A program made the position numbers and the translations under genes. 64,000 nt of DNA from Escherichia phage vB_EcoM-673R5: sequence record ON470615.2. One strand, 5' to 3'. The notes under the pieces are model-generated. The model saw nothing but the letters and a program-made list of their open reading frames with translations. It was not told where the DNA came from and made no database searches. How positions within the stretch are numbered: the first letter of the stretch is position 1; every line of letters starts with the position of its first letter. Positions 7,737 to 64,000 of the stretch are shown in pieces.

Positions 7737-7988
7737 ATGGATAAGAAAATATGCGTTGTGTCGATGAGCGTCGGCAAACCGGCGTCAATGACTGCTGCAT
7801 GGATCAATAACGAGCTGATAATGGCTGAGCGGACCAGCTACCCTGAACGCCGCCGCGATATGGAACTCCAGCTGCTGCGCGAATTGCGAGAAAAAGAGGA
7901 AAAGGGTTTTATCGTGCTGGTGGAAGAGGAAAACAGCTTTATTACTGGTCGAGTTGGCCAGCGTGTAAGGTTGCGCGATCCTTCATGA
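7737..7988 (+). CDS. hypothetical 83-aa protein (P1 mat position)
   Basis: ORF downstream of late-promoter box; stop overlaps next start (ATGA at 7985-7988). Confidence 0.45.
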   Translation: MDKKICVVSMSVGKPASMTAAWINNELIMAERTSYPERRRDMELQLLRELREKEEKGFIVLVEEENSFITGRVGQRVRLRDPS

Positions 7989-8353
7989 ACGGCAGGCCGG
8001 TACTAATTGAGGCAATGCAGATTTATAAGGAGCTGGAACGCCAGAAAGCAATCAAGTTACCGCGCAAGGAATCCGGCAAATACATTCTCCACCAAAGCAT
8101 CTTCGATTCCGAACACGATAAAAAAGGCGATGAATTTTTCAACATCAACTGGAGCGAAATAACGACAGAGCATGTTCTGACGTTACTATGTTGCTTTGCG
8201 ACGGAATACAACAACGTTGCCAGCGCCGACTACATCAGGGCAATGGCTGGAGAAGTTGAGGCCCGCCAAGAACCATCGTTACTAAGTCCACTGATTAACA
8301 TAATTCTGGGCACCCAGATACTGGAACAAAAAAAGTGCCGAAAGGGGTATTAA
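7985..8353 (+). CDS. hypothetical 122-aa protein
   Basis: ORF translationally coupled to 7737-7988; no recognisable motif. Confidence 0.45.
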   Translation: MNGRPVLIEAMQIYKELERQKAIKLPRKESGKYILHQSIFDSEHDKKGDEFFNINWSEITTEHVLTLLCCFATEYNNVASADYIRAMAGEVEARQEPSLLSPLINIILGTQILEQKKCRKGY

Positions 8354-8469
8354 CAGGCAAGCATAATTATTTTTAACAATTACATACAGTAATTTTGTGG
8401 TTACATTCTCCATTGATTTTCTAACCGCTTTATCATTAGATGTAACAGCATGTAAATCATTTAAAATGG

Positions 8470-9578
8470 ATGAAAGCAATGGGGAATGAAGTTTATCAAA
8501 GTCAAAAATGCAAGTTGAAATATTCAAAATCTCAAATTGATAGGGCTGCTCAATTGATAAGGCACGGGTGTAGTGACGAAGAAAGGCAGCAATCTATTGA
8601 AATGATACAAAATTTCCGTGAGCTGCATCTTTATCCATTAATGCTCATGAAAAATCATTTAGCAAGAGCAGCTGCTAAGGTTGACAAGGACAAAAAGATT
8701 CTCGTTGCAAGAAGACTTAAGCGACTTTCTACCATAATAGATAAACTAGAGCGTCCTAGTCTTGATGGAGGCAGAACTAGCAATGCAATTAAATTAACAC
8801 GGATGCAGGACGTTGGCGGATGTAGGGCCATTGTCAGAAACTTAGACCAGTTGATACAGCTAAAGGAACGTCTTTTAAAAAGCAAATCTGTTCATAGGAT
8901 TGTTAAAGAGTATGATTATCTTACTCCCAAAGACAGCGGCTATAGTGGAATCCACCTTGCATACAGTTGCTTCGATCAGAAGAGGATCAATATCCGTGGC
9001 GAAAAACAAAGATTGAGATACAGTTAAGAACTCAATTGCAGCATGCTTGGGCTACCAGCCTTGAAATAATTGATACCCTTGAAGGTATCAAGCTGAAAAC
9101 TTCAAGTGAAGGGCATCCAGAATGGAGACGATTTTTCTATCTAGCCGGATGTCTTGTAGCGCACGACGAAAAAGCCTGCACTCTTGATGAGCTAGTTGTA
9201 TCTCAGTATGAAGGCGAGCTTAAAGAGCTGGAACGGACTTTATCTGTACGGAGGAAACTAAGCACATACACCATCGCCTTAAATTTAACTTCTGACGCGA
9301 ATTTGATTAAGAAGTTGCCAAAAAATCATAAGGGGCATTACTTAGTAACAATGAGAAATGCAGAAAACAAGCCCAATACAAAAAACAAAAAAATGTTCCT
9401 AGTGTCTGTTCGCGCATTTAAAACAAAAGAAGCAGATGAAGCCCTTGAGGCCTTAAATAAAGACGATTCTAATCCTAATGTATTGATATCTGTTCTCGTT
9501 GCTACAGATAACATTAAGTCACTAAAAAAGCCTACCCCAACTATTTTGGCTCAACAAACCAGTTTACAAAATTCTTAG
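8470..9578 (+). CDS. fused RelA/SpoT-domain toxin (toxSAS, CapRel-like); frame broken once in an A5 run near 9005
   Basis: ORFs 8470-9027 and 8967-9578 join to about 369 aa; RelA/SpoT synthetase motifs (DVGGCRAIV, GYSGIHLAY, EIQLRTQLQHAWA); AT-rich vs flanks. Confidence 0.65.
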
Positions 9579-21215: not shown

Positions 21216-21225
21216 CCACCAAAAA

Positions 21226-21252
21226 TAACCCCGGCAGCTGCCGGGGTTCTCG
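21226..21252. terminator. bidirectional terminator
   Basis: Perfect palindrome ACCCCGGCAGCTGCCGGGGT followed by TCTCGTT. Confidence 0.5.
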
Positions 21253-29079: not shown

Positions 29080-30609
29080 TTTCTCGGTGCCAGCGCCCCC
29101 AGGAAACGCAATATTGGGGAAAGTTTTTGAAACTGAGTTTTCAGCATTACGCGGAACTCGTCTGGTGAGCTGGTGGCCAGCTCCAGAGCTTTTTGTGCAT
29201 ATTTGCCAAACGGACCATTAGTAAGTGTCTTAGCCAGGAAGTCGAAAGAATCCTCGCGAGGCAATAACTTCAGGTCGTACTCACTCATTTGCTGATCAGA
29301 AAGCGGGGTATCGTAAGTAGTAATGCCGTAGCGTGCATATTCATAATACGGGTCACCTTCATCAGGGCGCGGCAGAATTGCTTTGTTACCTTCAGGTATT
29401 GCGCCGGGGGCCGCCGGACGCATTTGCAGGGCATATCGATATGCACCTACAGAGACTTCTGGTTCAGGCGAAGAGCTACCGGTATCCTCCGCTGGTTCAG
29501 GTTCGACGTTTTCCGGTTTATGTTCTTCTGGTTGGACCAGGTATTCCGATACATTACCCGCTTTATAGGCTTTAAACAGCTTGCCGATCGCATCTGCCAT
29601 GTCCACACCCTGTATGGATTTAGCCTTGATCATGTATACGCTGCCATCCGGATCGGTTAACTGGATATACCCTTCGCCGCCCCCAATGAATTGCTTCATT
29701 GATGCACCATTACTGAGCGTCACTTCCCCGTCCATATGCATACGATTTTTGATACTGGCAAGGCGATCCGTCAGCGCGCGAGAGTGCCCACCAGTCATCC
29801 CCGCTGGAGCAATGGTATCGCGCCCACCAGTGCGATTGAGCTGATCAATCTCCGTCTGCAAACGCTCATTCTCTTCATAAAGAGAATCCGCTTCCGATGC
29901 AACAGCGTTAATTTTCTGCTCCAGATCTGCCTTCTGCCCTTCTACCGCTGCCACCTGATCCGCGAGGTCGCTCATGGCATCCTCTTTCTGGTCACTGTCA
30001 GCCTGTAGTTGGGTTATTTCATCAACAAGGGCTTTTTTCTTCTTCTGCGCACGCTGGAATTTTGCCGAGTTTTTCTCTGCAAGGTTGGCAAGTTTCATGG
30101 TGACCTGCGCCAGCGTCATATCACGTCCACTCATCGGAGCAACGGTGTGAGTAACGTCTTTTTATTCAGTAAGAACTGGAAAGCAACCAGCGTATCGCTA
30201 TTGGTGATCCGGTTTTCCGCTGTCGGGCTATGAAACAGAATGCTGATAGTCTGACCATCACTGAGCGGAATAATGGCTGGCAGGACCGGCAGCCCGTTAA
30301 CGTTCCGTGCCCGGCCAATTTCAGCACCGCCGATCGCGCGCGCGCCGCTCTGGGCCACATCCCCGTTTTATCACTCCCCGCAGAGATTCCGGTACCATTC
30401 AGCTTCTGGTTCAATGCCCGGACAAATGCCTGCATGGTCCGGTGTAACTGCAAACGAGTAGAACTAATCGCCTCCAGTAAATCCGTAGCACACCAGTGGA
30501 TCGGCGTGTCATAGAAGAACGTAGCCTCGATTTCCTCCAGGGTGTTGGATTCCGTCATCAGATAGCGGTCCTCACCGGCCATTAATGCGCGATATTCATC
30601 ATCAGTCAC
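29064..30609 (-). CDS. DarA-like internal head/antirestriction protein; frameshifted
   Basis: ORFs 30166-30609 and 29064-30134; coiled-coil-rich; position between hdf-like gene and ddr genes. Confidence 0.4.
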
Positions 30610-30675
30610 TGGCGGGGAAGCACGTCAAGCCCAGGCTTGATCGTCACCCCTTTATTGATATTGAACTGTTCCATG

Positions 30676-31287
30676 TTAATTTCCTGCTTTCAGTTGCTTA
30701 AGACGGCGTTTGAGTTCGCCATTTCGGGCCTTTTCGTTATTGAGTCGGCCTGTCTCCTTATCCAGCTTCGCCCGCAAATCAGTGATCTGCTGTTGATTGA
30801 AAGACACCGAGTTCTGCGCTGATTTATAAGCGGCAACCACCTGAGCATTCCGCTGTTTTGCCTCTTGCAGGCGCTGAAAGTTGGATTTTACTGCCGGTTT
30901 CTTGTCTACCGGATTGGCAACACGTTTCGCTTTGGCGATCAGTGATTTCTGGAATTTTGCGGAGTTTTTGCGGGCCGCTTGCCCCATGACGGTACCAAGC
31001 GTCTTGATATCCGGCGATTGAGCGTTAGGAATAGCTTTTCCATTCAGCCTCACAGACGATATATCGCCAGTATCGTTTACCTGTATGGCAAGAATTTGTC
31101 CGTCGTTAAGAACCAGCTTTGCGGTTTTAACTTTAACGCCATCTTTCGTTGTTGCGCGGTTGCTGGAGTCAACCTCAATTACCGTAACACCGGTTTTATT
31201 GATCGCCGCGATAAGGGATTTCAGCCCCTTTTCATTAACCTGGTCAAAATCGACCGTTGCATACTTATTTTTCGTCATCTGACACAT
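30676..31287 (-). CDS. Hdf-like protein
   Basis: 203-aa ORF upstream of darA-like gene in lysis/dar operon. Confidence 0.35.
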   Translation of the reverse strand: MCQMTKNKYATVDFDQVNEKGLKSLIAAINKTGVTVIEVDSSNRATTKDGVKVKTAKLVLNDGQILAIQVNDTGDISSVRLNGKAIPNAQSPDIKTLGTVMGQAARKNSAKFQKSLIAKAKRVANPVDKKPAVKSNFQRLQEAKQRNAQVVAAYKSAQNSVSFNQQQITDLRAKLDKETGRLNNEKARNGELKRRLKQLKAGN

Positions 31288-31700
31288 CCTGTGCGAGATT
31301 TATTACGTAACTTCTGCGGATTTGCTGAGTAACAGGGAAAATCCGATACAACGGGTTAATGAACGAGTCGCCATGCGTAACCATGACGTTGAAATGCCAC
31401 AGTCGCTCTCCTTTACCCATATATTCAGTGGGTATGTACAACCATTCACTGTTTTCGCCCTGTTCAGCCGACGTCAAACAACGTTGTTCGCCTTCAATCA
31501 CTGTCGTCGGCTTCTGAACATCGCGGATCAATATCTGACCGTTGCGCCGCGCAAAAACGGGAATTTAGACCGGTATTTGAACGGCACCCGGATGAAACCC
31601 GGTTTAATTTCCACATCACCAAGTTCTAAATGCGTGATGTCCTTGCGTTTTAGCAAATAGCGATCGGCTAAGGCTAACGCAAGAACGCATACACCCCAGC
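31265..31700 (-). CDS. membrane-anchored protein of lysis operon; frameshifted
   Basis: N-terminal piece MIGWGVCVLALALADRYLL... joins ORF 31265-31531. Confidence 0.3.
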
Positions 31701-31703
31701 CAA

Positions 31704-32033
31704 TCATTTCCCGCCTCCCTTTTTCACCAAACTTGTAAGAACATTCAGAATGCTATCGATATTCACTCGTTTCATCCCTGAAATCACCTCATGACCGTTA
31801 TTGCTGGCTATCGTTACCATTAAGTACGTAATGGATAACTCCCAGCCCTCGTGTTGCCCCAATAGGTACGCCACCGCGCCAGCTGTCACTGCAACAAAGA
31901 TCTCCGTAACCAATCCCAACAAATTGCCAGACTGGCGACCGTCTCGGACATCCATCAGGAACGTGCCTATCCCACCAATTACTGAAAGCAGGAGCGCAAT
32001 AGCAACTGGAGCTAATTCCTGTGTGTCAAGCAC
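31704..32033 (-). CDS. holin-like membrane protein (LydA-like)
   Basis: 109 aa with three hydrophobic helices and charged C-terminus; in lysis operon position. Confidence 0.45.
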   Translation of the reverse strand: MLDTQELAPVAIALLLSVIGGIGTFLMDVRDGRQSGNLLGLVTEIFVAVTAGAVAYLLGQHEGWELSITYLMVTIASNNGHEVISGMKRVNIDSILNVLTSLVKKGGGK

Positions 32034-32107
32034 AAGTTCCCTCCTACGTTGTCAGGAGGTAATGGTATGCAAAGTAACTTCTCAACCGGTTATGTTGCAT
32101 AAGAGAC

Positions 32108-32371
32108 TTACCTATTCAACCGACTTTTGGAACCTTCAATAATAAGCCTGCTATTGGCGCTGAAAATAAGAACCATGCAGCTCTGAAGGCTTTCATTCAT
32201 ATCCTTATATTCCGCGAGATACATGCCAATAAAGCCAGCAAGTACGGCGGAAATACATTCGGCCAGCAATTTCTTGCATGAAGACTCGTAACGGTTTTCA
32301 CACAGCCCACTCAAATACGAATACACCCCACCAAGAAGGGATAACATCACGATATGTACATAAAATGTCAT
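32108..32371 (-). CDS. small membrane protein, first gene of operon
   Basis: 87-aa ORF with two hydrophobic segments. Confidence 0.4.
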   Translation of the reverse strand: MTFYVHIVMLSLLGGVYSYLSGLCENRYESSCKKLLAECISAVLAGFIGMYLAEYKDMNESLQSCMVLIFSANSRLIIEGSKSRLNR

Positions 32372-32376
32372 TTTTT

Positions 32377-32398
32377 ACCTATACAACAGTAAGTTGAA
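32377..32398 (-). promoter_or_regulatory. putative late promoter of lysis/darA operon
   Basis: Minus strand CAACTTACT-gttg-TATAGG; resembles the box upstream of R-S-U. Confidence 0.3.
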
Positions 32399-32497
32399 CA
32401 ACATCTGAGAACGGTATGCACTTTGTGATTTCCACACACACTGGTTTTGTTAATTAAAACCTGTAGCTTGCAATAAATAACGATAGTGGGCAGAAAA

Positions 32498-32720
32498 TAT
32501 GCTAATAGGCTATGTACGCATATAGACAAATGAACAAAACACAGCTATGCAGTGAAAAGCACTTGAAAGCGCAGGATGTGAGCTAATTTTTGCGAATAAG
32601 GCGAGCAGCAAAAGGCTGGGCACCCTGGGTTAAAAAGGTTCTGCGTATGCTTTCCAGAGGTGATACCCTAGTCTCGGGCTAGGGACAACATTTCGAGGAC
32701 AGTTTTCATTAGCGGTCAGC
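32498..32720 (+). pseudogene. relic of a second Hin/Cin-family serine invertase (N-terminal fragment, multiple stops)
   Basis: Reads MLIGYVRI*..TNEQNTAMQ*KALESAGCELIFANKASSKRLG..GDTLVS across three frames, paralleling Cin MQIGYIRVSTNDQNTDLQRNALNCAGCELIF. Confidence 0.5.
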
Positions 32721-32804
32721 AGGCGCTAGATACATCGAATTGATGTGCCGCGCGATAAATGTACCTATTCTATCAAGATAAATTACACCGACGCGGCATT
32801 AGAA

Positions 32805-33385
32805 TTACAGCTCAGATTGAGTTTGGCGCTTCTCTACAGGATGATAACGATAAATCGTCGATACACCGATATCGTAAATAATTGCCAACTGTTTCCTGCT
32901 GTAGCCATTTTCGATCAACCTCGCTATTTGCTCATGTTGTTCTTTTGTCAACTTCGGGCGACGTCCGCCAATGCGTCCCTGTTCGCGTGCAGCTGCCAGT
33001 CCGGCCAGTGTTCTCTCAACAATTAATTCACGTTCCATTTCTGCTAAAGCCCCCATGACGTGAAAAAGAAACGCCCCATGGGTGTTGATGTGTCAATACT
33101 GTCTGTCAGACTACGGAAATTAACACCTTTTTCCCGCAACTCCTCTATAAGCGTGATAAGGTGTTTCATACTTCTGCCAAGCCTATCCAGCTTCCAGACA
33201 ACCAGCGTATCTCCTTCTGATAACGTTCTGAGCAGCTTTTTCAAGCCTGGTCTGGCTGACTTTGTTCCGCTTATTTTATCTTCAAAAATCAGTTCACATC
33301 CTGCGCAGTTCAGTGCATTTCTTTGTAAATCTGTGTTTTGGTCATTTGTTGACACACGAATGTAGCCAATTTGCATGAAAAACAA
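32805..33385 (-). CDS. cin: Cin-family serine DNA invertase; one frameshift near 33050
   Basis: MQIGYIRVSTNDQNTDLQ...GDTLVVWKLDRLGRS catalytic domain plus C-terminal HTH (SRKQLAIIYDIGVSTIYRY); ORFs 33044-33385 and 32805-33056. Confidence 0.8.
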
Positions 33386-33435
33386 CCTCTTTGTTTAGTT
33401 AAAAATACATCGTTGGTATAGGTAGGGATTAAGAC

Positions 33436-33457
33436 TAAAACGTTGGTTTGGGGAAGG
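33436..33457 (+). repeat. cix-like crossover site 1
   Basis: TAAAACGTTGGTTTGGGGAAGG; imperfect dyad around central TT. Confidence 0.5.
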
Positions 33458-33875
33458 CTCTGCACTGCCCGTTGGCGTGCCCGTTCCGTGGCCATCAGCC
33501 ACACCTCCAACGGGGTGGCTGAAATGCAATGGCGCAGCATTTTCTTCTGAAAAGTACCCAAATCTGGCAAAGGTTTACCCCACTAATAAATTGCCGGATC
33601 TACGGGGCGAATTTATTCGTGGCTGGGATGACGGACGAGGTGTGGACAATGGGCGAGCATTATTAAGCAGCCAAGAGGCTACAAACTTTTCTCAGTGTGC
33701 CGGAAATATAGGCAATGGTGCGGGGCACGCAATTAATTTTCATGATGGCATCGTCGGAAATCAGCCAGGATTTTCACGATTTAATTTCACCAGTAACTCT
33801 GTAGGTGATGGTATAAATTTTGTTGCTGTCAGGCCGCGAAATATCGCATTTAATTACATCGTAAGGGCGGCATAA
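33458..33875 (+). CDS. tail-fibre variable C-terminal cassette Sv-a (promoterless)
   Basis: GEGSALPVGVPVPWPSATPPTGWLKCNGAAFSSEKYPNLAK...RPRNIAFNYIVRAA; stop abuts next site. Confidence 0.5.
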
Positions 33876-33893
33876 AAACGTTGGTTTGGGGGA
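33872..33893 (+). repeat. cix-like crossover site 2
   Basis: AAAAACGTTGGTTTGGGGGAAGG. Confidence 0.5.
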
Positions 33894-34366
33894 AGGCTCT
33901 GCATTGCCTGTTGGCGTACCTGTTCCGTGGCCCTCAGCCACACCTCCAACGGGGTGGCTGAAATGCAATGGTGCAGCATTTTCTTCTGAAAAGTACCCAA
34001 ATCTGGCAAAGGCTTATCCCACCAATAAATTACCGGATTTACGGGAGAATTTATTCGCGGCTGGGATGATGGGCGCGGGTGGATGCGGGCCTACGGGGTC
34101 GTGCTTTATTGAGCATTCAGACAGGAATGCTGGAAAAGCATCGACATATTGTTGTAGCCAATGATGGTTACGACACAAAGATGAATGGGAGCTGGCGACA
34201 ATTTTCAAAAAACATACACACAAGGATGGGGACTTGATGCCACAAATACAGGAGGGAGTCTGATCCCATCACCGACACTTCATTCACGAGGAGTATCGGT
34301 AATACTGGCGGGAGTGAAACCCGTCCACGAAATATCGCATTTAATTATATCGTAAGGGCGGCATAA
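33894..34366 (+). CDS. tail-fibre variable cassette Sv-b; frameshifted
   Basis: Same conserved N-block; ends ...GGSETRPRNIAFNYIVRAA; indel in a GGG run near 34045. Confidence 0.45.
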
Positions 34367-34384
34367 AAACGTTGGTTTGGGAGA
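34363..34384 (+). repeat. cix-like crossover site 3
   Basis: AAAAACGTTGGTTTGGGAGAAGG. Confidence 0.5.
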
Positions 34385-34854
34385 AGGCTCTGCATTACCT
34401 GTTGGTGTCCCTGTTCCGTGGCCTTCAGCCACACCTCCAACGGGGTGGCTGAAATGCAATGGTGCAGCATTTTCTTCTGAAAAGTACCCAAATCTGGCAA
34501 AGGCTTACCCGACAAATAAATTGCCTGATTTACGTGGTGAGTTCATTCGTGGCTGGGATGACGGGCGCGGGATTGATCCGGGGTCGCTCTATTTTAAGCG
34601 AGCAAGGATATGCAACGGAGGATCATGCTCACGGATTACCGTCAAAATCAACCGTAGCAACTGACAGCTCAATTAATTTCTACTTTGACGAGGCATGGGC
34701 TACTAGTGGTAATACGGGAGTTATCAGATGGGGGAACACAAGCGATGCAGGATTGCCAGCCCCTAATTATGGAACTTTTAAAACATATAAACAGTCCGTA
34801 GCTAATTTAGGTACTGCTGGCTTAGAAACCCGCCCTCGTAATAGCCACATTTAA
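34385..34854 (+). CDS. tail-fibre variable cassette Sv-c; frameshifted
   Basis: ORFs 34377-34664 and 34459-34854; ends ...LETRPRNSHI, followed by degenerate site remnant. Confidence 0.45.
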
Positions 34855-34902
34855 TTATATTGTGAGGGCGGATTATATCAACTGGCTGTAGAAAGTTGTT
34901 TT

Positions 34903-35522
34903 TCAGGCCAGTTGAGATACCCAAATGGTTAAATCCATCGCGTTCAGCTCGTCTATATAATCTAGCACGGAGTTAAGCTGCGTGGTTTCTGCCTGCGTCA
35001 ACTTCCGTCCAGCCCGTAATTTCAACTGAATCAGACTAATGGAATCCATCGCAGTATCAATCAATGACTGACGTTTTGTTTCTGCTGTACTCCCTCGTGA
35101 ATGAAGTGTCGGTGATGGGATCAATCTACAGCTGCACTATGTTGAGCCTCAGTATCAACCACCCATTTCTCTCCATCCCATTTGTCGTATGGTGTTAGCG
35201 GGGCGATAGTGGTTGTATTTTCCGGATAGTCGCCCCAACACCGTGATTTCTTCGGGATTCCCTGTGTCAATGCTATAGACAGTTTCGCCACGATGATCTG
35301 GCACATACTCCCATGAACTTAAATCCTCTGAACGGAGAATCGCATAACCTGCTTTATGTGAACTGGAGCATCAAACAAGAATGTGCCGGAATACCAACGA
35401 ATAACAGCAAGATATTCAGTTGATGCAGAAATATATTCCCGATTACCACCATCATAGTTATAAACGATAATGTTTCCTGCCTGTATGGCTATAAGTTCGC
35501 TATTTAATATCGCATTATCCAT
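34903..35522 (-). CDS. U: tail-fibre assembly chaperone U (Tfa family); frameshifted
   Basis: Tfa-like ...KWDGEKWVVDTEAQHSAAVD and C-terminus ...LIQLKLRAGRKLTQAETTQLNSVLDYIDELNAMDLTIW; three ORF pieces. Confidence 0.6.
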
Positions 35523-35524
35523 TA

Positions 35525-35967
35525 TGCTGCTCTCACAATATAATTGAAGGCATGTTACGTGGGCGGGTTTCATTCCCCCAGATAACTCCGTTCTGTATTG
35601 ACTGGTAAATTTACCATTAATCGCTCCTTCTTGGACGGCGTTATCTGTCGACAACAGGCTATCCCCCCTCTGTCATTTGGCACCAATACCGTGTTATCCC
35701 ACGCGTCCCATGACCGAATATTATGATAATGACTTCCTGTTAACCACCCCTGTATGCTTAAGATGACCCTTCCCGCATCCACACCGCGCCCATCATCCCA
35801 ACCACGGATAAACTCACCGCGTAAATCAGGTAATTTTAACGTTGGGTAAACCTTTGCCAGATTTGGGTACTTTTCAGAAGAAAATGCTGCGCCATTGCAT
35901 TTCAGCCACCCCGTTGGAGGTGTGGCTGATGGCCACGGAACGGGCACGCCAACGGGCAGTGCAGAGC
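35525..35967 (-). CDS. tail-fibre variable cassette Sv-d
   Basis: MPVPWPSATPPTGWLKCNGAAFSSEKYPNLAKVYPTLKLPDLRGEFIRGWDDGRGVD...; directly upstream of U. Confidence 0.45.
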
Positions 35968-35990
35968 CTTCCCCAAACCAACGTTTTCAT
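35968..35990 (-). repeat. cix-like crossover site 4
   Basis: Minus strand GAAAACGTTGGTTTGGGGAAGG. Confidence 0.5.
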
Positions 35991-36009
35991 GCCGCCCTTA
36001 CGATATAAT

Positions 36010-38833
36010 TAAACGCATATGTTACGAGGACGAATGGTTACATAATTAACCCCATCACCTCGTGAAGGCCCTAAATGAAAAACGGGAAAATCCTGGTTGG
36101 TAGAAACAATTTGGTCATAGTTATTGATTGAATGACCAGACCCAATGTCGAAATTACCTCCGTAATGAGAAAAACTTTACCATCCTGCCCTGAAAGCTTA
36201 AAATAGACGTCCCGCATCAATCCCGCGCCCATCATCCCAGCCACGGATAAATTCACCGCGTAAATCCGGTAATTTATTGGTGGGGTAAGCCTTTGCCAGA
36301 TTTGGGTACTTTTCAGAAGAAAATGCTGCTCCATTACATTTCAGCCAGCCCGTTGGAGGTGTTTCTGAGGGCCACGGAACGGGCACACCAACAGGCAGTG
36401 CAGAGCCTTCCCCAAACCAAGGTAATTAAGAACGCTCTGAATACTGGGCTTACTAAGAATTGCACGTCCAACACTTGTCAGTGCAGTTAACGCGGCACGA
36501 TCAACCCCTGTGAAATAAGGGAGTTTATCTGCTGCGGTAGCTAGTGCCGCTAGAGCAGTGAGCGTAGCGTCTGCCGCTTGCTTTCCATTAGCCAAATCAT
36601 ATGCAGCCTTGACAGCTTTCGGTGTAGCGGCCAGCACTTCAGACGTGCTGTTAGTGGCACTACTGAGCTGAGTGATGCCTTTCGCTGTCAATGAAGCTGT
36701 TGGCACACCAGTGATCTGATTCGGGGATGTGTATGACTGGATGGTGCCTTTCCGGCTGCTAGATCGTATGCAGCTTTAACTGCTTTTGGCGTTGCAGCTA
36801 ATGTTTCAGAAGTGCTGTTGGTGTCGCTACTGAGCTGAACTATCCCTTTTTGTGTCGTGGTTGCATCCTGGGCTGTATACTTCCCGTTAGCCAGGTCATA
36901 TGCAGCCTTGACAGCTTTCGGTGTGGCGGCCAGCACTTCAGACGTGCTGTTAGTGGCACTACTGAGCTGAGTGATGCCTTTCGCTGTCAATGAAGCTGTT
37001 GGCACACCAGTGATCTGATTCAGGGATGTGTATGACTGGATGGTGCCTTTCCGGCTGCTAGATCGTATGCAGCTTTAACCGCTTTTGGCGTTGCAGCTAA
37101 TGTTTCAGAAGTGCTGTTGGTGTCGCTACTGAGCTGAACTATCCCTTTTTGTGTCGTGGTTGCATCCTGGGCTGTATACTTCCCGTTAGCCAGGTCATAT
37201 GCAGCCTTGACAGCTTTCGGTGTGGCGGCCAGCACTTCAGACGTGCTGTTAGTGGCACTACTGAGCTGAGTGATGCCTTTCGCTGTCAATGAAGCTGTTG
37301 GCACACCAGTAATCTGATTCCAGGGATGTGTATGACTGGATGGTGCTTTTTCGGCTGCTAGATCGTATGCAGCTTTAACCGCTTTTGGCGTTGCAGCTAA
37401 TGTTTCAGAAGTGCTGTTGGTGTCGCTACTGAGCTGAACTATCCCTTTTTGTGTCGTGGTTGCATCCTGGGCTGTATACTTCCCGTTAGCCAGGTCATAT
37501 GCAGCCTTGACAGCTTTCGGTGTGGCGGCCAGCACTTCAGACGTGCTGTTAGTGGCACTACTGAGCTGAGTGATGCCTTTCGCTGTCAATGAAGCTGTTG
37601 GCACACCAGTGATCTGATTCCAGGGATGTGTATGACTGGATGGTGCCTTTCCGGCTGCTAGATCGTATGCAGCTTTAACCGCTTTTGGCGTTGCAGCTAA
37701 TGTTTCAGAAGTGCTGTTGGTGTCGCTACTGAGCTGAACTATCCCTTTTTGTGTCGTGGTTGCATCCTGGGCTGTATACTTCCCGTTAGCCAGGTCATAT
37801 GCAGCCTTGACAGCTTTCGGTGTGGCGGCCAGCACTTCAGACGTGCTGTTAGTGGCACTACTGAGCTGAGTGATGCCTTTCGCTGTCAATGAAGCTGTTG
37901 GCACACCAGTGATCTGATTCAGGGATGTGTATGACTGGATGGTGCCTTTCCGGCTGCTAGATCGTATGCAGCTTTAACCGCTTTTGGCGTTGCAGCTAAT
38001 GTTTCAGAAGTGCTGTTGGTGTCGCTACTGAGCTGAACTATCCCTTTTTGTGTCGTGGTTGCATCCTGGGCTGTATACTTCCCGTTAGCCAGGTCATATG
38101 CAGCCTTGACAGCTTTCGGTGTGGCGGCCAGCACTTCGGACGTACTGTTAGTGGCACTACTGAGCTGAACTAATCCCTTTTGCGTTGTGCTTGCATCCTG
38201 CGCCGTATACTTGCTTTTCGCCAGATCGTAGGCTTTTTTAACTGCCAGCGAACTCGCAGCAACATCACTTCTGGTACTGGTTACAGAGTCTGAAATATCA
38301 ATGCCGATCGTGCGGTTGATACGCTCGGATGTATCAATCATCTCTTGAGTAATGGTAGATACGCCAGCAGGGATATTCACCGTACAAACCAGCAGTTCCC
38401 CATCACCTAACTGATATGAATCGGTATAGGTTCTGGCAACAAATTCAGCTGCATGAATATGTGACGCGGTATTCACCTGATAGGTATCTTCTCCAAGAAG
38501 GTATCTTCCCTTCAGCACAATTGCATATTTCTTGCCTGCGTTAAGTGCAAGAGAGATATCCTTACGATGCTGAATAGTTACCTGGTAGAATTCACCAATA
38601 TCCACTGACGCCGCGCCAGCGGTTTTATCTCCATCCACTGAGGTGATTAACAGGTTCATCCCACCGCCAGGCTTAGGCAAGAAACCAGCATAAAATCCCG
38701 GGTCAACAATTCCCCTGAATTTTCGGTTTAGAGCGGCTGACAGATATGGTTCGTGGTATTGCACATCAGCCACCAGAGCCAACGACTCGGGTGATGGGTA
38801 AGTAACCGATGTAACAACTGTAACGTCATTCAT
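36010..38833 (-). CDS. S: tail fibre protein S (constant part plus currently joined Sv-e cassette); several frameshifts in repeats
   Basis: Starts MNDVTVVTSVTYPSPESLALVADVQYHEPYL; contains 100-aa tandem repeats; joins cassette at site 5; ORFs 37919-38920, 37020-37904, 36688-37005, 36341-36706, 36198-36386. Confidence 0.7.
36408..36430 (-). repeat. cix-like crossover site 5 (Sc/Sv junction)
   Basis: Minus strand TTACCTTGGTTTGGGGAAGG. Confidence 0.5.
36575..38250 (-). repeat. tandem 300-bp coding repeats (about 5 copies) inside S
   Basis: Unit ...GTGATCTGATTC(C)AGGGATGTGTATGACTGGATGGTGCC... recurs at 36710, 37005, 37305, 37605, 37905; encodes repeated TASLTAKGITQLSSATNSTSEVLAATPKAVKAAYDLA motif. 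Confidence 0.75.
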
Positions 38834-57710: not shown

Positions 57711-59438
57711 TTACTCAGAGTCACCAGCATCAATCGTGTTACCGGTCAGGAAGTTAATTCCGCCATTTTTTGCCATAGTCAGAGTTACACGGGTGAAGTA
57801 GTCAGCACCGTTGCGTGGATGCATATCGTTGATAGCCGAACCCCACAGAGTGGTTCGGTTGACTAGTGCCGGGGTGGTCGGATGCTGGAATGGGACAGCC
57901 GGGACTGCATCACCAGTTACGAAGCCCGCTTTGCCCGGATTTTCATCACGGACGTAGCACAGCACATCCATTGGGCTGAACTGGATACCGTCGGCGGTCA
58001 GGTTCGTACAAATACCTTCTGGTACTTCGAACACTTTGACGTTGCCGAACAGAGTGCCAATGTAGTGGACGTATGGGGTCTGGATGTAATCTTCTGCTGG
58101 CTGGAAGAAATCCTTCGGCAATTGTTTGAAGAAAGATGCCGCATCAGCACCGGCATACATCCCCATCGCACCAGAAGATTTAACACGCTCAATAATACCG
58201 CGATATACCGTCTGGAATTTGCCTCGAATGATGGTTGCCCACACATCAAAGGTCTGGTTAGCTGGTAGTGCAATATCAAAGGAGTCGGTCGCAAGAGTTC
58301 GCCAAATCATGATACGAAGACGAAGCATATCTTGCTCATGGGACAGGTATTCCTTCAGGGTGCGGAACTGTAGGGAGCCAAGATCCAGACCAAATTCACG
58401 CTGTGCTTCATACGCCGCCTGTACCGTGTGCTCAGCCGCGATGACGAACTGGTTTGGGAACAGGGTGTAACTCTTCATTTCGTGGTTGATAAGTGGGATC
58501 AGCTCAGGAGCTGCTTCTATATTGATCTCCGCCTCAATGGCGATCTCAGTGCCTTTATCCGGCGCTTTGGAGAACGACAGGGCAATCTGACCAACGTTGT
58601 AATTCAAAGAGCAAGTAACAGTGATTTGTTCGCCTGCTTTGTTATTGAATGTGTGAAGCAGAGTACCGGAGCCGTTATCAACAACAGACTTAATACGGTT
58701 AACGTAGATGTTTGTGCGACCTTTGCGAATCGGGACATTCTGACCTTCGACATCTTCCATCTTGAAGGTTGCAGTTTTGCTGGTGCCGTCGGAGCTTGCA
58801 ACCAGCACATAGCGGCGGCGCAACTGGCTGTACACGCCAACGGATTGCATGTCCAGAACATCACCAATAGCATAGGAGCCAAAAGAAGAACCCGCTACGT
58901 TAAAGATTTCATAGATTTCGGACTTGTCACGCGTAACCGGAATGAATGTACACGCATCAGCGGTAGCTGCCCCCAACTGAACAGGCAGGATCATCGCCAA
59001 GAATAAAGGCAGACGCATAACCCCGTCAGAAACACTCATCATCTCTGCCGCGACTGATTCCAGCATCGCTTTATTGGTGGCGTCCATGCTATTGCGGGTG
59101 GACTCAATCAGGCAGTTTTCCAGCGTCTGATGGCAGGAGGCCAGAATTTCCGGACGTGGCATAGATTTATGTGTTGCGGCGTAGTCAGCCAGTGCACTTG
59201 CCCACGCTGTAGCGATTTGAGCGGTGGCATTATCAGAGATACCCGCAAAAATTGGGTCTTTACGTGCAGCTTCAAGGATAGATGCGGCACGCGCGGCATC
59301 ATCTTTAATGAATTGGTTATCAGTACCGAACTGCGCAGTGCTTGCCCAGCCAAGCACAGCTTTAGAGCGTTTTGCGATATCTGCAATACGATTCTGGTAT
59401 TCGCGTAAGTTACTCAATTTACTCTTCCTTAAACACAA
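57711..59438 (-). CDS. major head protein (P1 gene 23 position)
   Basis: 575 aa, about 63 kDa; adjacent to parS as in P1. Confidence 0.5.
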   Translation of the reverse strand: MCLRKSKLSNLREYQNRIADIAKRSKAVLGWASTAQFGTDNQFIKDDAARAASILEAARKDPIFAGISDNATAQIATAWASALADYAATHKSMPRPEILASCHQTLENCLIESTRNSMDATNKAMLESVAAEMMSVSDGVMRLPLFLAMILPVQLGAATADACTFIPVTRDKSEIYEIFNVAGSSFGSYAIGDVLDMQSVGVYSQLRRRYVLVASSDGTSKTATFKMEDVEGQNVPIRKGRTNIYVNRIKSVVDNGSGTLLHTFNNKAGEQITVTCSLNYNVGQIALSFSKAPDKGTEIAIEAEINIEAAPELIPLINHEMKSYTLFPNQFVIAAEHTVQAAYEAQREFGLDLGSLQFRTLKEYLSHEQDMLRLRIMIWRTLATDSFDIALPANQTFDVWATIIRGKFQTVYRGIIERVKSSGAMGMYAGADAASFFKQLPKDFFQPAEDYIQTPYVHYIGTLFGNVKVFEVPEGICTNLTADGIQFSPMDVLCYVRDENPGKAGFVTGDAVPAVPFQHPTTPALVNRTTLWGSAINDMHPRNGADYFTRVTLTMAKNGGINFLTGNTIDAGDSE

Positions 59439-59469
59439 GGCACTTGTGTGAATCCCTTTTCGGAAGAGA

Positions 59470-59494
59470 TTTTATTGAAAGTCACTTGTTGACT
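59470..59494 (-). promoter_or_regulatory. putative late promoter of head/sheath operon
   Basis: Minus strand GTCAACAAGTGACT-ttcaa-TAAAAT. Confidence 0.35.
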
Positions 59495-59550
59495 TTCTCG
59501 TGACAAGCAATTTTTTTATTTTTTTCGGGAGTAGGGGAGGAAGGTAAAAT

Positions 59551-59638
59551 CCAAGGTGAAATCGTGGCGATTTCACCTTGAAATTTTAGAGTGATTTACT
59601 TTAAAAACAGTAGTTTAATAGTGAAATTTGAATGGCGA
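59551..59638. other. parS: parS partition site
   Basis: Heptamer ATTTCAC/GTGAAAT and hexamer TCGCCA/TGGCGA boxes flanking an A/T-rich IHF-like core; immediately downstream of parB. Confidence 0.8.
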
Positions 59639-59642
59639 AAGT

Positions 59643-60643
59643 TTAAGGCTTCGGCTTTTTATCGAGGCTCTTTCTAAGGATATGCCCAATCATCCTGTCG
59701 AGTTCTTCCTGTAGCTCTTTTGAAAGTCGATTAAACTCATAAGAAAATGCACGGCCTTTCACGCGCTTCCTTGCAAAGCGATCCTTGTCCTCAAATTTCC
59801 ATAATTCAGTAACTACGGACTTATCTTTAGAACCTTTATCCGTGAGTAGTGAGGCTTCCTTTGTTATCAAGCGCAGGATTTTATTTTTAACTTCATCTTC
59901 GGCCATTTCTTCAATGGATAAGATGTCGTTTATTTCCGGGGATATGTTTTGAATAAGCTGATCAAACTCTAAATTCTTGTTCCCCATTTCGTCGCCAACA
60001 GCACAAAGCGTTTTGTAGTCCGAAAAGGTTAATTCCGACTGCACAGGGAAAAGGGCGACTAATTCTTCCGGAGCACTCGCTGCCTGGAGAGCACGCGTGA
60101 CCTTCGCCTGAGACAGCCCTTCTTTGGCTGCAATATCCTTCTGACTCATCCCATCATTTTTCATTCGCATCAAACGCAGACCTATTTCTCGAATGCTGTG
60201 CTGCAATGCTGTCTGAACGTCTTTCGCTAAATTTTGCGCTTCCTGAACGCTGATCTCCTGGTCCGTGACTAAAACCCGCAACCCTACGTTCTCTAAGATG
60301 GCAGAAGCTCGACGCCGGGAACCATCCAAAATTTCAATTTTCCCTGTAGCCCGTCTAACACCTATTGCAGGGTAAAATTGCTGATGCTTAATAGTGCTTC
60401 GGATACTTTTTAATGATTTTGGCGTAAGAGATGCCTGGTCACGCCCGTTGTTATGCTGATCAACAAAGGTATCGCTTTTACCTGGTTCGGAGGTATTACC
60501 TCTTCAATAAATGTGGCCTGGCGACCAGTTGATAACTTGAATACCTGCTCGACTCGATCGCCAGAGGCTGAAGAACTATCAAATCCGCTTAATATTGAAG
60601 GATTAAGGGTTCGCCCAATTGTTGGTCTGTTTTTCTTTGACAT
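59643..60643 (-). CDS. parB: ParB partition protein; one frameshift
   Basis: N-terminus MSKKNRPTIGRTLNPSILSGFDSSSASGDRVEQVFKLSTGRQATFIEEVIPPNQV; ORFs 60410-60643 and 59643-60329; about 333 aa. Confidence 0.85.
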
Positions 60644-60659
60644 GGGGGTTTCTTACTCC

Positions 60660-61856
60660 TCAGTTAGATCTGATAAATTCAATACGGTCAAAAACTGCTT
60701 TAGCAAAATCTTCCGCAGCAATTCGCGCGTTCTTCAATGCATCAGCACTACCAACATACGTTGCCGGGTTAGCTGAAATAACAGTGTCAAAAGACTCGCC
60801 GCAGCGTTCAAAACCGTCAAGGCGAGGGAGGACAACATCAAGCATATCCCCACCGAACACTTCTTTAGCCAGGCTATGGCAATACTTATGGTCTGCCTTG
60901 TTACTCAACTTGGACATAAAACCAATGTTAGTTGCAAGCTGACACTCGCAGCCTTCATCCGAAATGAGTTTCACCAACTCAGGAAGGCGGGCAACGTATT
61001 TAAGCGATGAGTGGAAATCAACCGTTGCAGGCGGCAGAGGTGTAAACAGTATATTGGCCGAGGCCAAAGCATTTTTCAGGAAGGCGTCAAGGTGAGGACC
61101 ACTATCAACGAGGATAAAGTCATAATCGCTCTTCAGCTTATCAATCACATTTTCTTTCAGGACTGCATGGATGTTCTGACCCGGTAGATGCTCATTGCAC
61201 AGCTCTCTCCAATCGGATGCAATAAAGGCATCGTCAATCGACGCAGGCATAACGTCAACCCCAGGTACAACAGAAGGAACAATAAACTCCTCTAACAGCT
61301 CTTCACGGCTTACATTCTGCAACATAGCCTGTGCAGATGTTGCGTTTACGATACCAATAGAGTGTTTATGGCTTAAAAACATCGTTGCTGAAGATTGCGG
61401 ATCAAGGTCAATAACCAGAATCCTTAAATCTTCCATCAGAAGATGAGGATGAGCACGCATTGCATGCGCCAGAGAAACCGTCGATACAGTTTTTGACACA
61501 CCGCCTTTAAGATTGGAGATGAAAATCACATACGCTTCGCTGTAGCGATCCCGGTATTTTGGCACTCCGCGATGTTCATATATGTCAATGATGTTCTGAA
61601 TTGACATCGCATATTTCATTGAAGAGCCAGCAGGGCGTTTATCGAAAACATAACCCTTTTCTTCCATTTCACTTACGGCATAGTCAACGTTCGCACGAGT
61701 CAGTAGAGGCAATTTTGCCAGTGCCGCTTTCGCATAGACCTGGTAAAACTCGTTCGCGTGTAGCTCATCCTTTTGCAACTGTACTTGTTCAGTCAGAACA
61801 TTGAGCATTCTATTTGCTCTTTGAGCAACCTTGTGAAGCTGGCTGGAATCACTCAT
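60660..61856 (-). CDS. parA: ParA partition ATPase
   Basis: 398 aa; deviant Walker A KGGVSKT; long N-terminal HTH extension typical of type Ia ParA. Confidence 0.9.
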   Translation of the reverse strand: MSDSSQLHKVAQRANRMLNVLTEQVQLQKDELHANEFYQVYAKAALAKLPLLTRANVDYAVSEMEEKGYVFDKRPAGSSMKYAMSIQNIIDIYEHRGVPKYRDRYSEAYVIFISNLKGGVSKTVSTVSLAHAMRAHPHLLMEDLRILVIDLDPQSSATMFLSHKHSIGIVNATSAQAMLQNVSREELLEEFIVPSVVPGVDVMPASIDDAFIASDWRELCNEHLPGQNIHAVLKENVIDKLKSDYDFILVDSGPHLDAFLKNALASANILFTPLPPATVDFHSSLKYVARLPELVKLISDEGCECQLATNIGFMSKLSNKADHKYCHSLAKEVFGGDMLDVVLPRLDGFERCGESFDTVISANPATYVGSADALKNARIAAEDFAKAVFDRIEFIRSN

Positions 61857-62024
61857 CGAAAGTCATCCTTTATGCTGTATTTTTGAATTTAATTAAAAAT
61901 GCTGCATAAAATAATAATGTATGCGTAGATGCTTGTACATAGCATTTTCTGCATGTTTGGTTCATTTTGCACGATTGAGAGTTACAAGGAGGGCACAAAA
62001 AAGCCCCGTTCAGGGGCATCAGTG

Positions 62025-62832
62025 TTATTTGCTAAGAGCAGCGAATAATCGTTCGAAATCGATAGTATCTATAGCACGCGTAAGCGCCGGAAGTTCAGCC
62101 TCAAAGTACCCGTGTCGATCGTAAAAGAAGGGACCGAAGAGCGAGGCATGTTGGATTCTACTTCGCCCCAGCCCGGACACACAGTTAAGCCCATTACCGG
62201 CTAAAAGGCTAAAAAACTTCTCTGGATTATCGTGGTAAAGCTGGGAATCAATGGTGGCGGTTAACTCTTCCATAGGGAAGCACACCCGCCCTGTATCCCA
62301 GGGATATTTAGTCCGAAGCATAAACATTGCTTTCAGCAATTCACATTGAGCGCGGATCGCGTCCGGTTCATAGCCAGATATGGAGACATAAGCCACGTCC
62401 CTCATTCCTGCGTCATCTTTGAAAGTCACGATAGAAGTAACATCCAGCTCTTTTTCGAAAGAGCAAGCAGCATCTACTGGACGCTGAAGTAAATCATTCG
62501 ACTTAATGCGCTCGAGAATCCCTCCCCACATATCATTTAGATATTCGATATGAGCCAAAACCTTATCAAGACACTCTCGTGTAAACCATTCAGTATGCCG
62601 CCACCGACGCTTTTCTCCCACGGCGCATTCCAGGGAAAAAGGTTGCGTGTAAAGCCCGCTCAAGATTAACCATTGCCAAACGCGTACCACGATAGACCCG
62701 TGAAAGCGCAAAATCGGGACTCACTTGTAGCCCTTTAAACCGTGCCAATGGACCACATGAAATGCCGATTTTAAAAGTATCTCCGTTCTCTGGCACCAGA
62801 ACGTAGAGGTAGTGTTGTTTCTCTTCTTGCAT
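62025..62832 (-). CDS. T5orf172/GIY-YIG-like domain protein; one frameshift
   Basis: N-terminal YLYVLVPENGDTFKIGIS...ERALHATF...TEWFTRE pattern; ORFs 62590-62832 and 62025-62711. Confidence 0.45.
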
Positions 62833-62859
62833 ATCAATACCACTGCTTGATGAGAACCG

Positions 62860-63125
62860 CGCAAATGTTGACTATGCGCGAAGGTTAATGTGAATAGTTG
62901 ACTATGCGCGATGTGACTACAGTCAAAAGTTGACTGTAGTCGATTTAACTCCACCAAAGATCGACTATGTAAGATATTGTCGGGAGAAACGTTGACTATA
63001 CGCGATGAAATGCCCCTAAAAGCCATCTCAATAGCGACTTGCAGAATATTGACGCCAGCAAAAATCCACCAGCGTCAACGAATGTCGCCTATAGTCAACT
63101 TCTCGCTATCGCATATAGTCAATAT
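62860..63125. repeat. iteron array downstream of repA (incA-like)
   Basis: At least 6 copies of about 15-bp GTTGACTAT(G/A)CGCGA in both orientations (62867, 62897, 62928, 62991, 63085, 63109). Confidence 0.55.
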
Positions 63126-64000
63126 TATGGATTGCGCTTATGGATCTGGAAGCCGATTTTCCTGCCGTTTTTTATCTCTGAAAATTTAAGATATTCAATA
63201 GCTTCCAAATCTTTCATGGCTTTTCTGATAACGCTATTTTGCACGCTAACGGATGATTTGAGATTAAGCCTCGCTCTAAGGCGCTCAATGCTGACAGGTG
63301 CCGGGTTGGCGGGTAGAGCCTCAAAGAATGTATACAGTACCTTGGCCGTCTCTTTGCGCCCTAGTTTATCCAGCATCTTCAGCTTCAGGATTCGCTTATA
63401 GTCAACATAGTAAAGTTCAGATAGCTGTTTCTGCGGCTGGATCTCGATAACATCAAGCTCGGTATTCAGGCTGCTATATGCCAACAAGTTGACGTTAATG
63501 TTATTGAGATGACCTTTTGCCGCCGGGAAGCGGAATTTGACAACTGTCTGCTGAATGCGTGTCAGAGAGTCATCAATACTTTTACGGAACGCCTTTGAAA
63601 GGCGCTTACGTGGATAGCCGCATCGATCGGCAAACTCGGAGAATGGCAGGGTGATTATGCCGTCATCATCAGGTGCGTAGTCAAACAACGCGGAGGTTAT
63701 GCCCACCCACACCTTAAAATCAGTATCCATATCCAGGCGTGGACCATGAATTTCAATTCCCTCATAGCCTTCCTGCTCAACAATTTTGAGGCTTGATAGT
63801 TCTTCAGTTGCGTTCGTTGTGTTTGTTGTAACTGACGATCCGCGACGTAGCGCCACATTGGTAGATTTTAAGGTTGGCACAAACACACCTAAGCGCAACA
63901 AAGCGATGGGTTGTATAGTGCTGTTGTTATTGGGCTTCAGGCTGTGGATTTCTCCTGTATTTCCTGCAACTTCTTCAACGCTAAGGAAGCCTTTACTTTC
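63125..64000 (-). CDS. repA: RepA iteron-binding replication initiator (N-terminus beyond window end)
   Basis: Frame open to base 64000; flanked by iterons; followed by par operon. Confidence 0.65.
   Translation of the reverse strand, partial: ESKGFLSVEEVAGNTGEIHSLKPNNNSTIQPIALLRLGVFVPTLKSTNVALRRGSSVTTNTTNATEELSSLKIVEQEGYEGIEIHGPRLDMDTDFKVWVGITSALFDYAPDDDGIITLPFSEFADRCGYPRKRLSKAFRKSIDDSLTRIQQTVVKFRFPAAKGHLNNINVNLLAYSSLNTELDVIEIQPQKQLSELYYVDYKRILKLKMLDKLGRKETAKVLYTFFEALPANPAPVSIERLRARLNLKSSVSVQNSVIRKAMKDLEAIEYLKFSEIKNGRKIGFQIHKRNP

Follow-up and report, generated by a model that had tools for sequence, protein, structure and literature searches.

Odn (Gp88), the origin-directed nuclease of Vibrio phage ICP1 (Barth et al. 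2021, PMC8263062), is among the closest described parallels to the gene examined here. Both proteins carry a T5orf172 nuclease domain in which the catalytic glutamate is kept (Odn E180, equivalent to E58 of the present protein), and the Odn E180A mutant is catalytically dead (PMC8263062). The second domain of Odn is related to the origin-binding domain of a replication initiator, a likeness suggested for the present protein by a modest predicted fold only, and both genes are found amid the swapping of replication modules between related elements. The DNA-binding domain of Odn is 42% identical to PLE RepA_N (PMC8263062), whereas the C-terminal domain of the present protein is without sequence similarity to Rep proteins. 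The domain order is also reversed, the nuclease domain being N-terminal here, and the gene for Odn belongs to the attacking element and stands apart from any replicon, whereas the present gene is part of a replicon cassette.

The T4 Seg proteins and I-TevI are examples of free-standing GIY-YIG homing endonucleases of phages. Together with the putative homing endonucleases of ICP1, they resemble the present protein in having an N-terminal catalytic domain of GIY-YIG type, a linker and a separate C-terminal domain, and their genes resemble the present one in lying between conserved genes as a small unit that ends in a terminator, evolves fast and frequently decays; the difference is that the present gene is fixed within its cassette type and that the mobile unit is the whole cassette. 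CapR, from the V. cholerae PLE satellite, belongs to the same lineage of T5orf172-type putative homing endonucleases of phages, being a small DNA-binding repressor without a nuclease domain that matches the N-terminal, non-T5orf172 part of the putative homing endonucleases of ICP1 (bioRxiv 10.1101/2020.11.28.402263); unlike CapR, the present protein retains the complete catalytic domain. Similarity to SLX1 and At-HIGLE (PDB 6seh, 7cq2 and 7wme) was at the level of fold only (11-16% identity), and the RING/PHD domain and the SLX4 partner belong to SLX1.

The gene itself already carries a generic annotation as a GIY-YIG nuclease family protein. We found one paper with a mention of it, in which an unknown gene (gp57) and repA' (p0111) replace the IncY repA (PMC9603915), and we found no functional study of it in the literature. 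Its strict cassette membership and the possible Rep-like second domain are described in no paper that we found.

Layout and sequence quality of the locus

The window analysed is a stretch of 64,000 nucleotides from Escherichia phage vB_EcoM-673R5 (ON470615.2). The genes parB, parA, the T5orf172-family gene and repA lie in this order and in one orientation on its minus strand, and a preliminary description of the sequence was borne out in placing an extra gene of about 269 aa between the iterons and parA. The features of the interval 60660-64000 are listed below; window positions equal the coordinate in the extracted locus (L001) plus 57797.

60660-61856, minus strand: parA, open reading frame
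61911-61939, minus strand: par operon promoter (Ppar), from a promoter-like site and the P1 annotation; outside the cassette and common to P1
61955-61958, no strand: right-hand junction of the replicon cassette; canonical P1 similarity (Ppar, parA) lies below it
61993-62017, minus strand: hairpin resembling an intrinsic terminator, GCCCCTGAACGGGGC with a T run after it (62017-62003), located 8 nt past the stop codon of the T5orf172-family gene and ahead of the par promoter
62025-62832, minus strand: T5orf172-family gene, 808 nt in the window; the intact form has 810 nt and encodes 269 aa (WP_001154687.1)
62025-62519, minus strand: C-terminal domain (aa 106-269) and stop codon; predicted winged helix
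62520-62832, minus strand: T5orf172 nuclease domain (GIY-YIG superfamily) at the N terminus, aa 1-105
62598-62599, no strand: 1-nt deletion, CC against CCC in intact alleles; almost certainly artefactual
62633-62635, no strand: 1-nt deletion, GGG against GGGG in intact alleles; almost certainly artefactual
62866-63005, no strand: five direct iterons of GTTGACTATGCGCGA type, 30-32 nt apart, the nearest ending 33 nt before the ATG of the T5orf172-family gene
63085-63123, no strand: two further iterons, oppositely oriented and directly adjoining the repA stop codon (L001 5288-5302 and 5312-5326)
63125-64000 (L001 5328-6212), minus strand: repA, p0111-type Rep_3 initiator of 294 aa with Pfam Rep3_N and Rep3_C; its start lies just past the window end

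The five direct iterons (L001 5069-5208) are immediately upstream of the T5orf172-family gene, and seven TCGCGYATAGTCAAC-type iterons in all lie between the repA stop and the ATG of this gene. An eighth iteron-like copy (TCGCTTATAGTCAAC) is present within the repA coding sequence at 63392-63406 (L001 5595-5609). The window RepA is 42% identical to P1 RepA, and a hairpin equivalent to the one at 61993-62017 was found 3' of the homologue in another locus of the family (L009). The last iteron ends 25-35 nt ahead of the gene's ATG in all four lineages of the family. In all four, the stretch from repA to the gene contained no terminator, nor any promoter-like site beyond the rate expected by chance; Rfam gave no RNA family in the interval. 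From this arrangement we infer that transcription of the gene would come from repA by read-through, influenced by iteron-bound RepA.

The preliminary description had claimed one frameshift, in place of which we found two 1-nt homopolymer deletions that leave the gene as two overlapping ORFs in different frames (80 aa and 228 aa); with both missing bases restored, the protein was identical to WP_001154687.1 (269 aa). Compared with the E. coli plasmid NZ_CP027133.1, the gene showed 0 mismatches besides the two deletions, and window positions 57802-64000 showed no mismatches and four 1-nt deletions (two in the T5orf172-family gene, one in parB and one intergenic). Over the 53.4 kb that could be aligned, the window differed from this plasmid by 64 one-base deletions, 7 insertions and 7 substitutions, with 62 of the deletions located in homopolymers, next to an identical base. 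Such deletions are found, for example, at 1787, 3482, 7221, 16275, 23224, 44167, 57673, 59518-59525 and 60478. The pattern has the error profile of an unpolished long-read assembly and, because 64 deletions stand against only 7 substitutions, both frameshifts in the gene are almost certainly sequencing errors. It is hardly credible that the gene is a true pseudogene whose frameshifts are real in the source plasmid: natural null alleles do occur in the p0111 clade, but both lesions are single-base homopolymer losses like nearly all others in the window, another such deletion breaks the essential parB, and substitutions number only 7 in 53 kb. Many window ORFs, parB included, will thus appear frameshifted for technical reasons.

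In the window, parB (59643-60643, minus strand) is cut into ORFs of 77 aa and 228 aa by the deletion at 60478 (TTTCTA to TTTTA); in NZ_CP027133.1 it is intact, encoding 333 aa identical to P1 ParB. Around 21220-21248 the window is without about 680 bp of NZ_CP027133.1 (record 7907-8586), which carries an IS200C transposase gene there, so that the window appears to hold the uninterrupted site relative to that plasmid. The region at about 29100-38200 is not collinear with NZ_CP027133.1: matches within the tail-fibre region were inverted and duplicated, and 36581-38168 gave a ladder of matches at an offset of about 300 nt, which suggests tandem repeats of about 300 nt together with an invertible or rearranged tail-fibre segment.

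The nuclease domain and the C-terminal domain

The N-terminal T5orf172/GIY-YIG pattern noticed in the preliminary description held up, beyond chance, in a profile search: the intact 269-aa protein matched Pfam PF10544 (T5orf172) over aa 8-85 with 26.9 bits (E = 6.9e-6) against a gathering score of 20 bits, and the 80-aa window fragment by itself scored 18.8 bits, slightly below this threshold. The nearest relatives in an exhaustive phmmer search matched aa 5-105 only. Across 16 relatives the residues Y10, K21, G23, R31, D40, S44, E58, L61, H62 and E82-W83-F84 were invariant, and relatives that share the invariant catalytic Tyr, Arg, Glu and His were only 21-44% identical. The T5orf172 domain of Odn aligned to a profile of the N-domain with E = 2.8e-9, placing Odn E180 on E58 and a conserved Arg on R31, and the N-domain showed the GIY-YIG alpha/beta fold. 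As judged from these alignments, it is a T5orf172-type nuclease domain of the GIY-YIG superfamily with its catalytic residues intact. This conservation bears on one alternative, namely that the protein is a domesticated, non-cutting DNA-binding regulator like CapR, for example tuning repA or par expression. Endonuclease-derived repressors have precedent and the gene sits between two autoregulated operons, but invariant catalytic Tyr, Arg, Glu and His at 21-44% identity would be unexpected once catalysis had been lost, and we regard a regulator of this kind as improbable.

Against NCBIfam the intact protein gave no match, and against the PADLOC-DB 2.0 defence models no family at E up to 1; its PHROGs match was only to phrog_2876, a family of unknown function. 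The BFVD matches of the N-domain include proteins annotated with a CapR homology domain. A match on a Cupriavidus plasmid covered the N-domain only, and its gene context was uninformative. A homologue in phage phi456 (OR339795.1, 39982-40788) was deposited as 'terminase small subunit', a label that is almost certainly a misannotation.

The preliminary description had also called the C-terminal domain unrelated to known families, in agreement with our finding that its approximately 165 aa (106-269) matched no Pfam, NCBIfam or PADLOC family. The intact protein gave no hit to the Rep3_N and Rep3_C profiles at E up to 10, whereas the adjoining repA matched them. Among 1.84 billion representative proteins, phmmer recovered as C-domain relatives only the homologue P0004 and fragments of the same gene, with no Rep protein among the matches, and neither a word-indexed homologue search nor exhaustive phmmer found C-domain relatives outside the four lineages of the family. 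In a profile-profile comparison, the C-domains of the homologues P0010 and P0011 aligned to the window C-domain with E = 5e-4, collinear over 131 columns (probability 32%), which suggests that they are strongly diverged forms of one domain.

For the structure of the C-domain, an earlier model from a two-sequence alignment was unusable (pLDDT 52); a model from an alignment of four sequences predicted, with moderate confidence, a winged helix. Generic winged helices aside, its top matches among solved structures were the WH1 domains of iteron-binding Rep initiators (RepE 2z9o, pPS10 RepA 1hkq and MSBI1.176 6h24), with about 95-102 aligned residues covering most of WH1; Foldseek scores were modest (RctB, E = 0.024; MSBI1.176, E = 0.026, probability 0.9; many RepE54 chains). 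No homology was detected when a C-domain profile was compared by hhalign with seven local Rep_3 initiators (E = 0.27, probability 0.2%), and a profile search against PDB sequences gave a chance hit only. The structure prediction proposed in the preliminary description thus yielded a winged helix nearest to Rep WH1, at moderate confidence and with modest scores, and the Rep-like fold is to be taken as a lead, not as a result. The C-domain is acidic (pI ~5.1). We considered whether this rules out DNA binding and dropped the argument, the WH1 half of the cassette's own RepA having a pI of 4.9 and whole Odn a pI of 5.9. The N-terminal (WH1) half of the p0111-type RepA, at pI 4.9, can be set beside the initiators of P1, L007, L009 and RepFIB, at about 9 or higher, and the Providencia RepA, at 8.5.

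Exchange, prevalence and decay of the replicon cassette

In canonical P1 there is no CDS between incA and Ppar, in line with the preliminary description, and similarity to the window ends at about 61955-61958; a relic of the gene was looked for in the 214-bp incA-Ppar spacer of P1 and none was found. The left junction between window and P1 lies within oriR, where it separates the DnaA/GATC part from the iterons. The loci L004 and L007 (Logan ERR2144811 and SRR6505940; also Salmonella GCA_007478465.1) carry, respectively, a p0111-like and an IncY-like cassette. Their backbones are 96-99% identical and the flanks near-identical (UpfB 98%, PpfA 99%, ParA 100%, ParB 98%), whereas the cassettes are unalignable: RepA is 41% identical, and the T5orf172 proteins are 28% identical over full length and 39% in the N-domain. 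DNA identity between the two ends about 160-180 nt upstream of repA and returns 63-84 nt past the stop codon of the nuclease gene, and the cassette junctions lie at matching places in the window/P1 and L004/L007 pairs, the left one about 160-200 nt upstream of repA and the right one some 100-110 nt ahead of the parA start codon (ATG). L004 and L007 are a second, independent case of the P1/window replicon swap and, because the junctions in the two pairs coincide, the unit of exchange consists of the origin iterons, repA, the control iterons and the nuclease gene as one block, a moving unit of 2.2 kb. In each lineage the GC content of the T5orf172-family gene tracks that of repA, not that of parA. 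L007 has an IncY-like RepA (83% identical to that of P1) and P1-type iterons, yet carries a family member, and canonical P1 is therefore the form that lacks the gene.

Databases of 1.8 to 5.8 billion proteins yielded only four diverged full-length lineages (P0001, P0004, P0010 and P0011), each of them placed between repA with its iterons on one side and parA-parB on the other, on P1-like phage-plasmids 90-96 kb in size. The comparison of the incA-parA interval across P1-like plasmids that the preliminary description had called for therefore returned the same slot, repA-iterons-gene-parA, in every lineage. Scans of genome, viral and metagenome contigs gave only p0111-type copies and two unrelated N-domain hits, and viral contigs scanned with P0010 gave nothing. 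In PLSDB, about 398 records have the p0111 RepA type and about 401 the T5orf172-family gene, and among 5,426 complete E. coli genomes the gene is found in 412 (~7.6%). Essentially all p0111-type cassettes carry the gene and no canonical IncY P1 does, its presence or absence varying only by cassette (P1 versus p0111 type; P1 versus the IncY-like L007). The p0111-type cassette, the whole specificity part of the replicon, is by this comparison an alternative to the IncY cassette of P1, and the gene occupies one and the same slot in four diverged cassette lineages, of which one is IncY-like. The lone insertion into the plasmid-maintenance core that the preliminary description had proposed is accordingly not what is found, the whole p0111-type cassette standing in place of the IncY cassette of P1.

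Between the window and L004, which have the same iterons, identity was 84% for RepA, 89% for ParA, 64% for the nuclease N-domain and 32% for the C-domain. Within 45 p0111-type loci, pN/pS was 0.31-0.36 for the T5orf172-family gene, compared with 0.02 for repA, 0.01 for parA and 0.08 for parB; the gene is therefore under purifying selection, hence functional, and this selection is much weaker than that on its neighbours. Null alleles (nonsense or interruption) were present in 9 of the 45 loci, about a fifth, and comprise a Q228* allele in phage SJ46, supported by a 684-nt CDS, five contigs with S112*, one with W68* and two interrupted copies; the complete E. coli genomes additionally held an IS1 insertion in the gene and several split annotations. 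Plasmids that are maintained, SJ46 included, can thus carry nonsense or insertion alleles, and the gene is evidently dispensable for plasmid maintenance.

Possible roles of the gene

Our leading, still tentative reading is that the gene encodes a cassette-borne selfish or competitive nuclease, homing-like or Odn-like, directed against related replicons. We favour it because an intact nuclease domain is joined to a second domain that evolves fast, the gene lies at one edge of a swapped cassette, constraint is weak and decay is recurrent, which fits the cycle of invasion, fixation and degeneration of selfish nucleases. The gene is the last of the cassette, after the origin iterons, repA and the control iterons and before the terminator, and read-through from repA over the iteron array would give most expression when RepA is scarce, for example upon entry into a new cell. 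The nuclease would then cut a co-resident P1-like plasmid with a different cassette, and the rival plasmid would either be destroyed, as Odn does to PLE origins, or, as in homing, have the break mended by way of the conserved flanks (oriR in its left part, and Ppar-parA), which would convert it to the cassette that encodes the nuclease. In this scheme we infer the target, the timing of expression and the fate of the rival plasmid. A narrower version, an origin- or iteron-directed nuclease by which one cassette kills or converts its rival when two P1-like phage-plasmids share a cell, is possible but doubtful.

Several points count against a nuclease of this kind. No target site could be predicted from sequence; an acidic C-domain is unusual for a DNA-binding module, though the WH1 half of RepA is as acidic; the gene does not appear sporadic in the manner of a classic free-standing homing endonuclease gene; the P1 spacer holds no relic of it; and escape from incompatibility can by itself account for the exchange of cassettes, with no need for a nuclease.

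Among the alternatives, the strongest, although unlikely, is a replication or copy-number accessory factor whose WH1-like C-domain pairs with RepA or binds its own iterons, bringing nicking activity or regulation to the control iterons. In favour of such a factor are the one-to-one linkage with RepA type, the place of the gene straight after the control iterons in all four lineages, the match in GC content to repA, and the best fold matches of the C-domain, which are to Rep WH1, the dimerisation domain of Rep proteins. The same gene, however, has nonsense, IS-disrupted and truncated alleles in maintained plasmids, including phage SJ46, and a pN/pS some 15 times the repA value; with the same iterons and RepA at 84%, the C-domains of the window and L004 are only 32% identical; and the homologous replicon of P1 works without such a gene. 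The preliminary description had held that its reading would fail if the gene were a conserved accessory factor for replication in this type of replicon, and of this the strict linkage to the replicon type stands, while the null alleles show the gene to be dispensable.

A single-gene anti-phage defence (or anti-defence) nuclease carried as phage-plasmid cargo seems quite unlikely. A nuclease domain, fast divergence and frequent loss are typical of defence genes, and the relative NZ_CP027133.1 bears defence-type genes (a dGTPase and a RelA/SpoT-domain protein); on the other hand, PADLOC gave no match, the gene lies in the replicon cassette, outside those regions of P1-like plasmids that are known to hold variable cargo (PMC9603915), and it keeps the same slot in four diverged lineages while being exchanged along with repA. 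The evidence therefore favours selfish homing-like and plasmid-competition roles over defence.

A selfish or competitive nuclease would matter for a family of practical weight, in which P1-like phage-plasmids with the p0111-type cassette carry ESBL and other resistance genes (PMC9603915) and the IncY and p0111 replicon types serve for typing. Why both replicon types coexist and swap is explained in no paper that we found. If our reading is true, the cassette nuclease would be a concrete driver of plasmid exclusion and replicon replacement, and the principle of Odn, a nuclease turned against a competitor's replication module, would extend from phage-satellite to plasmid-plasmid conflict. On the narrower, origin- or iteron-directed version, the nuclease would also drive the IncY/p0111 polymorphism and the repeated swapping of cassettes, amounting to the 'homing' of a whole replicon in a resistance-carrying family.
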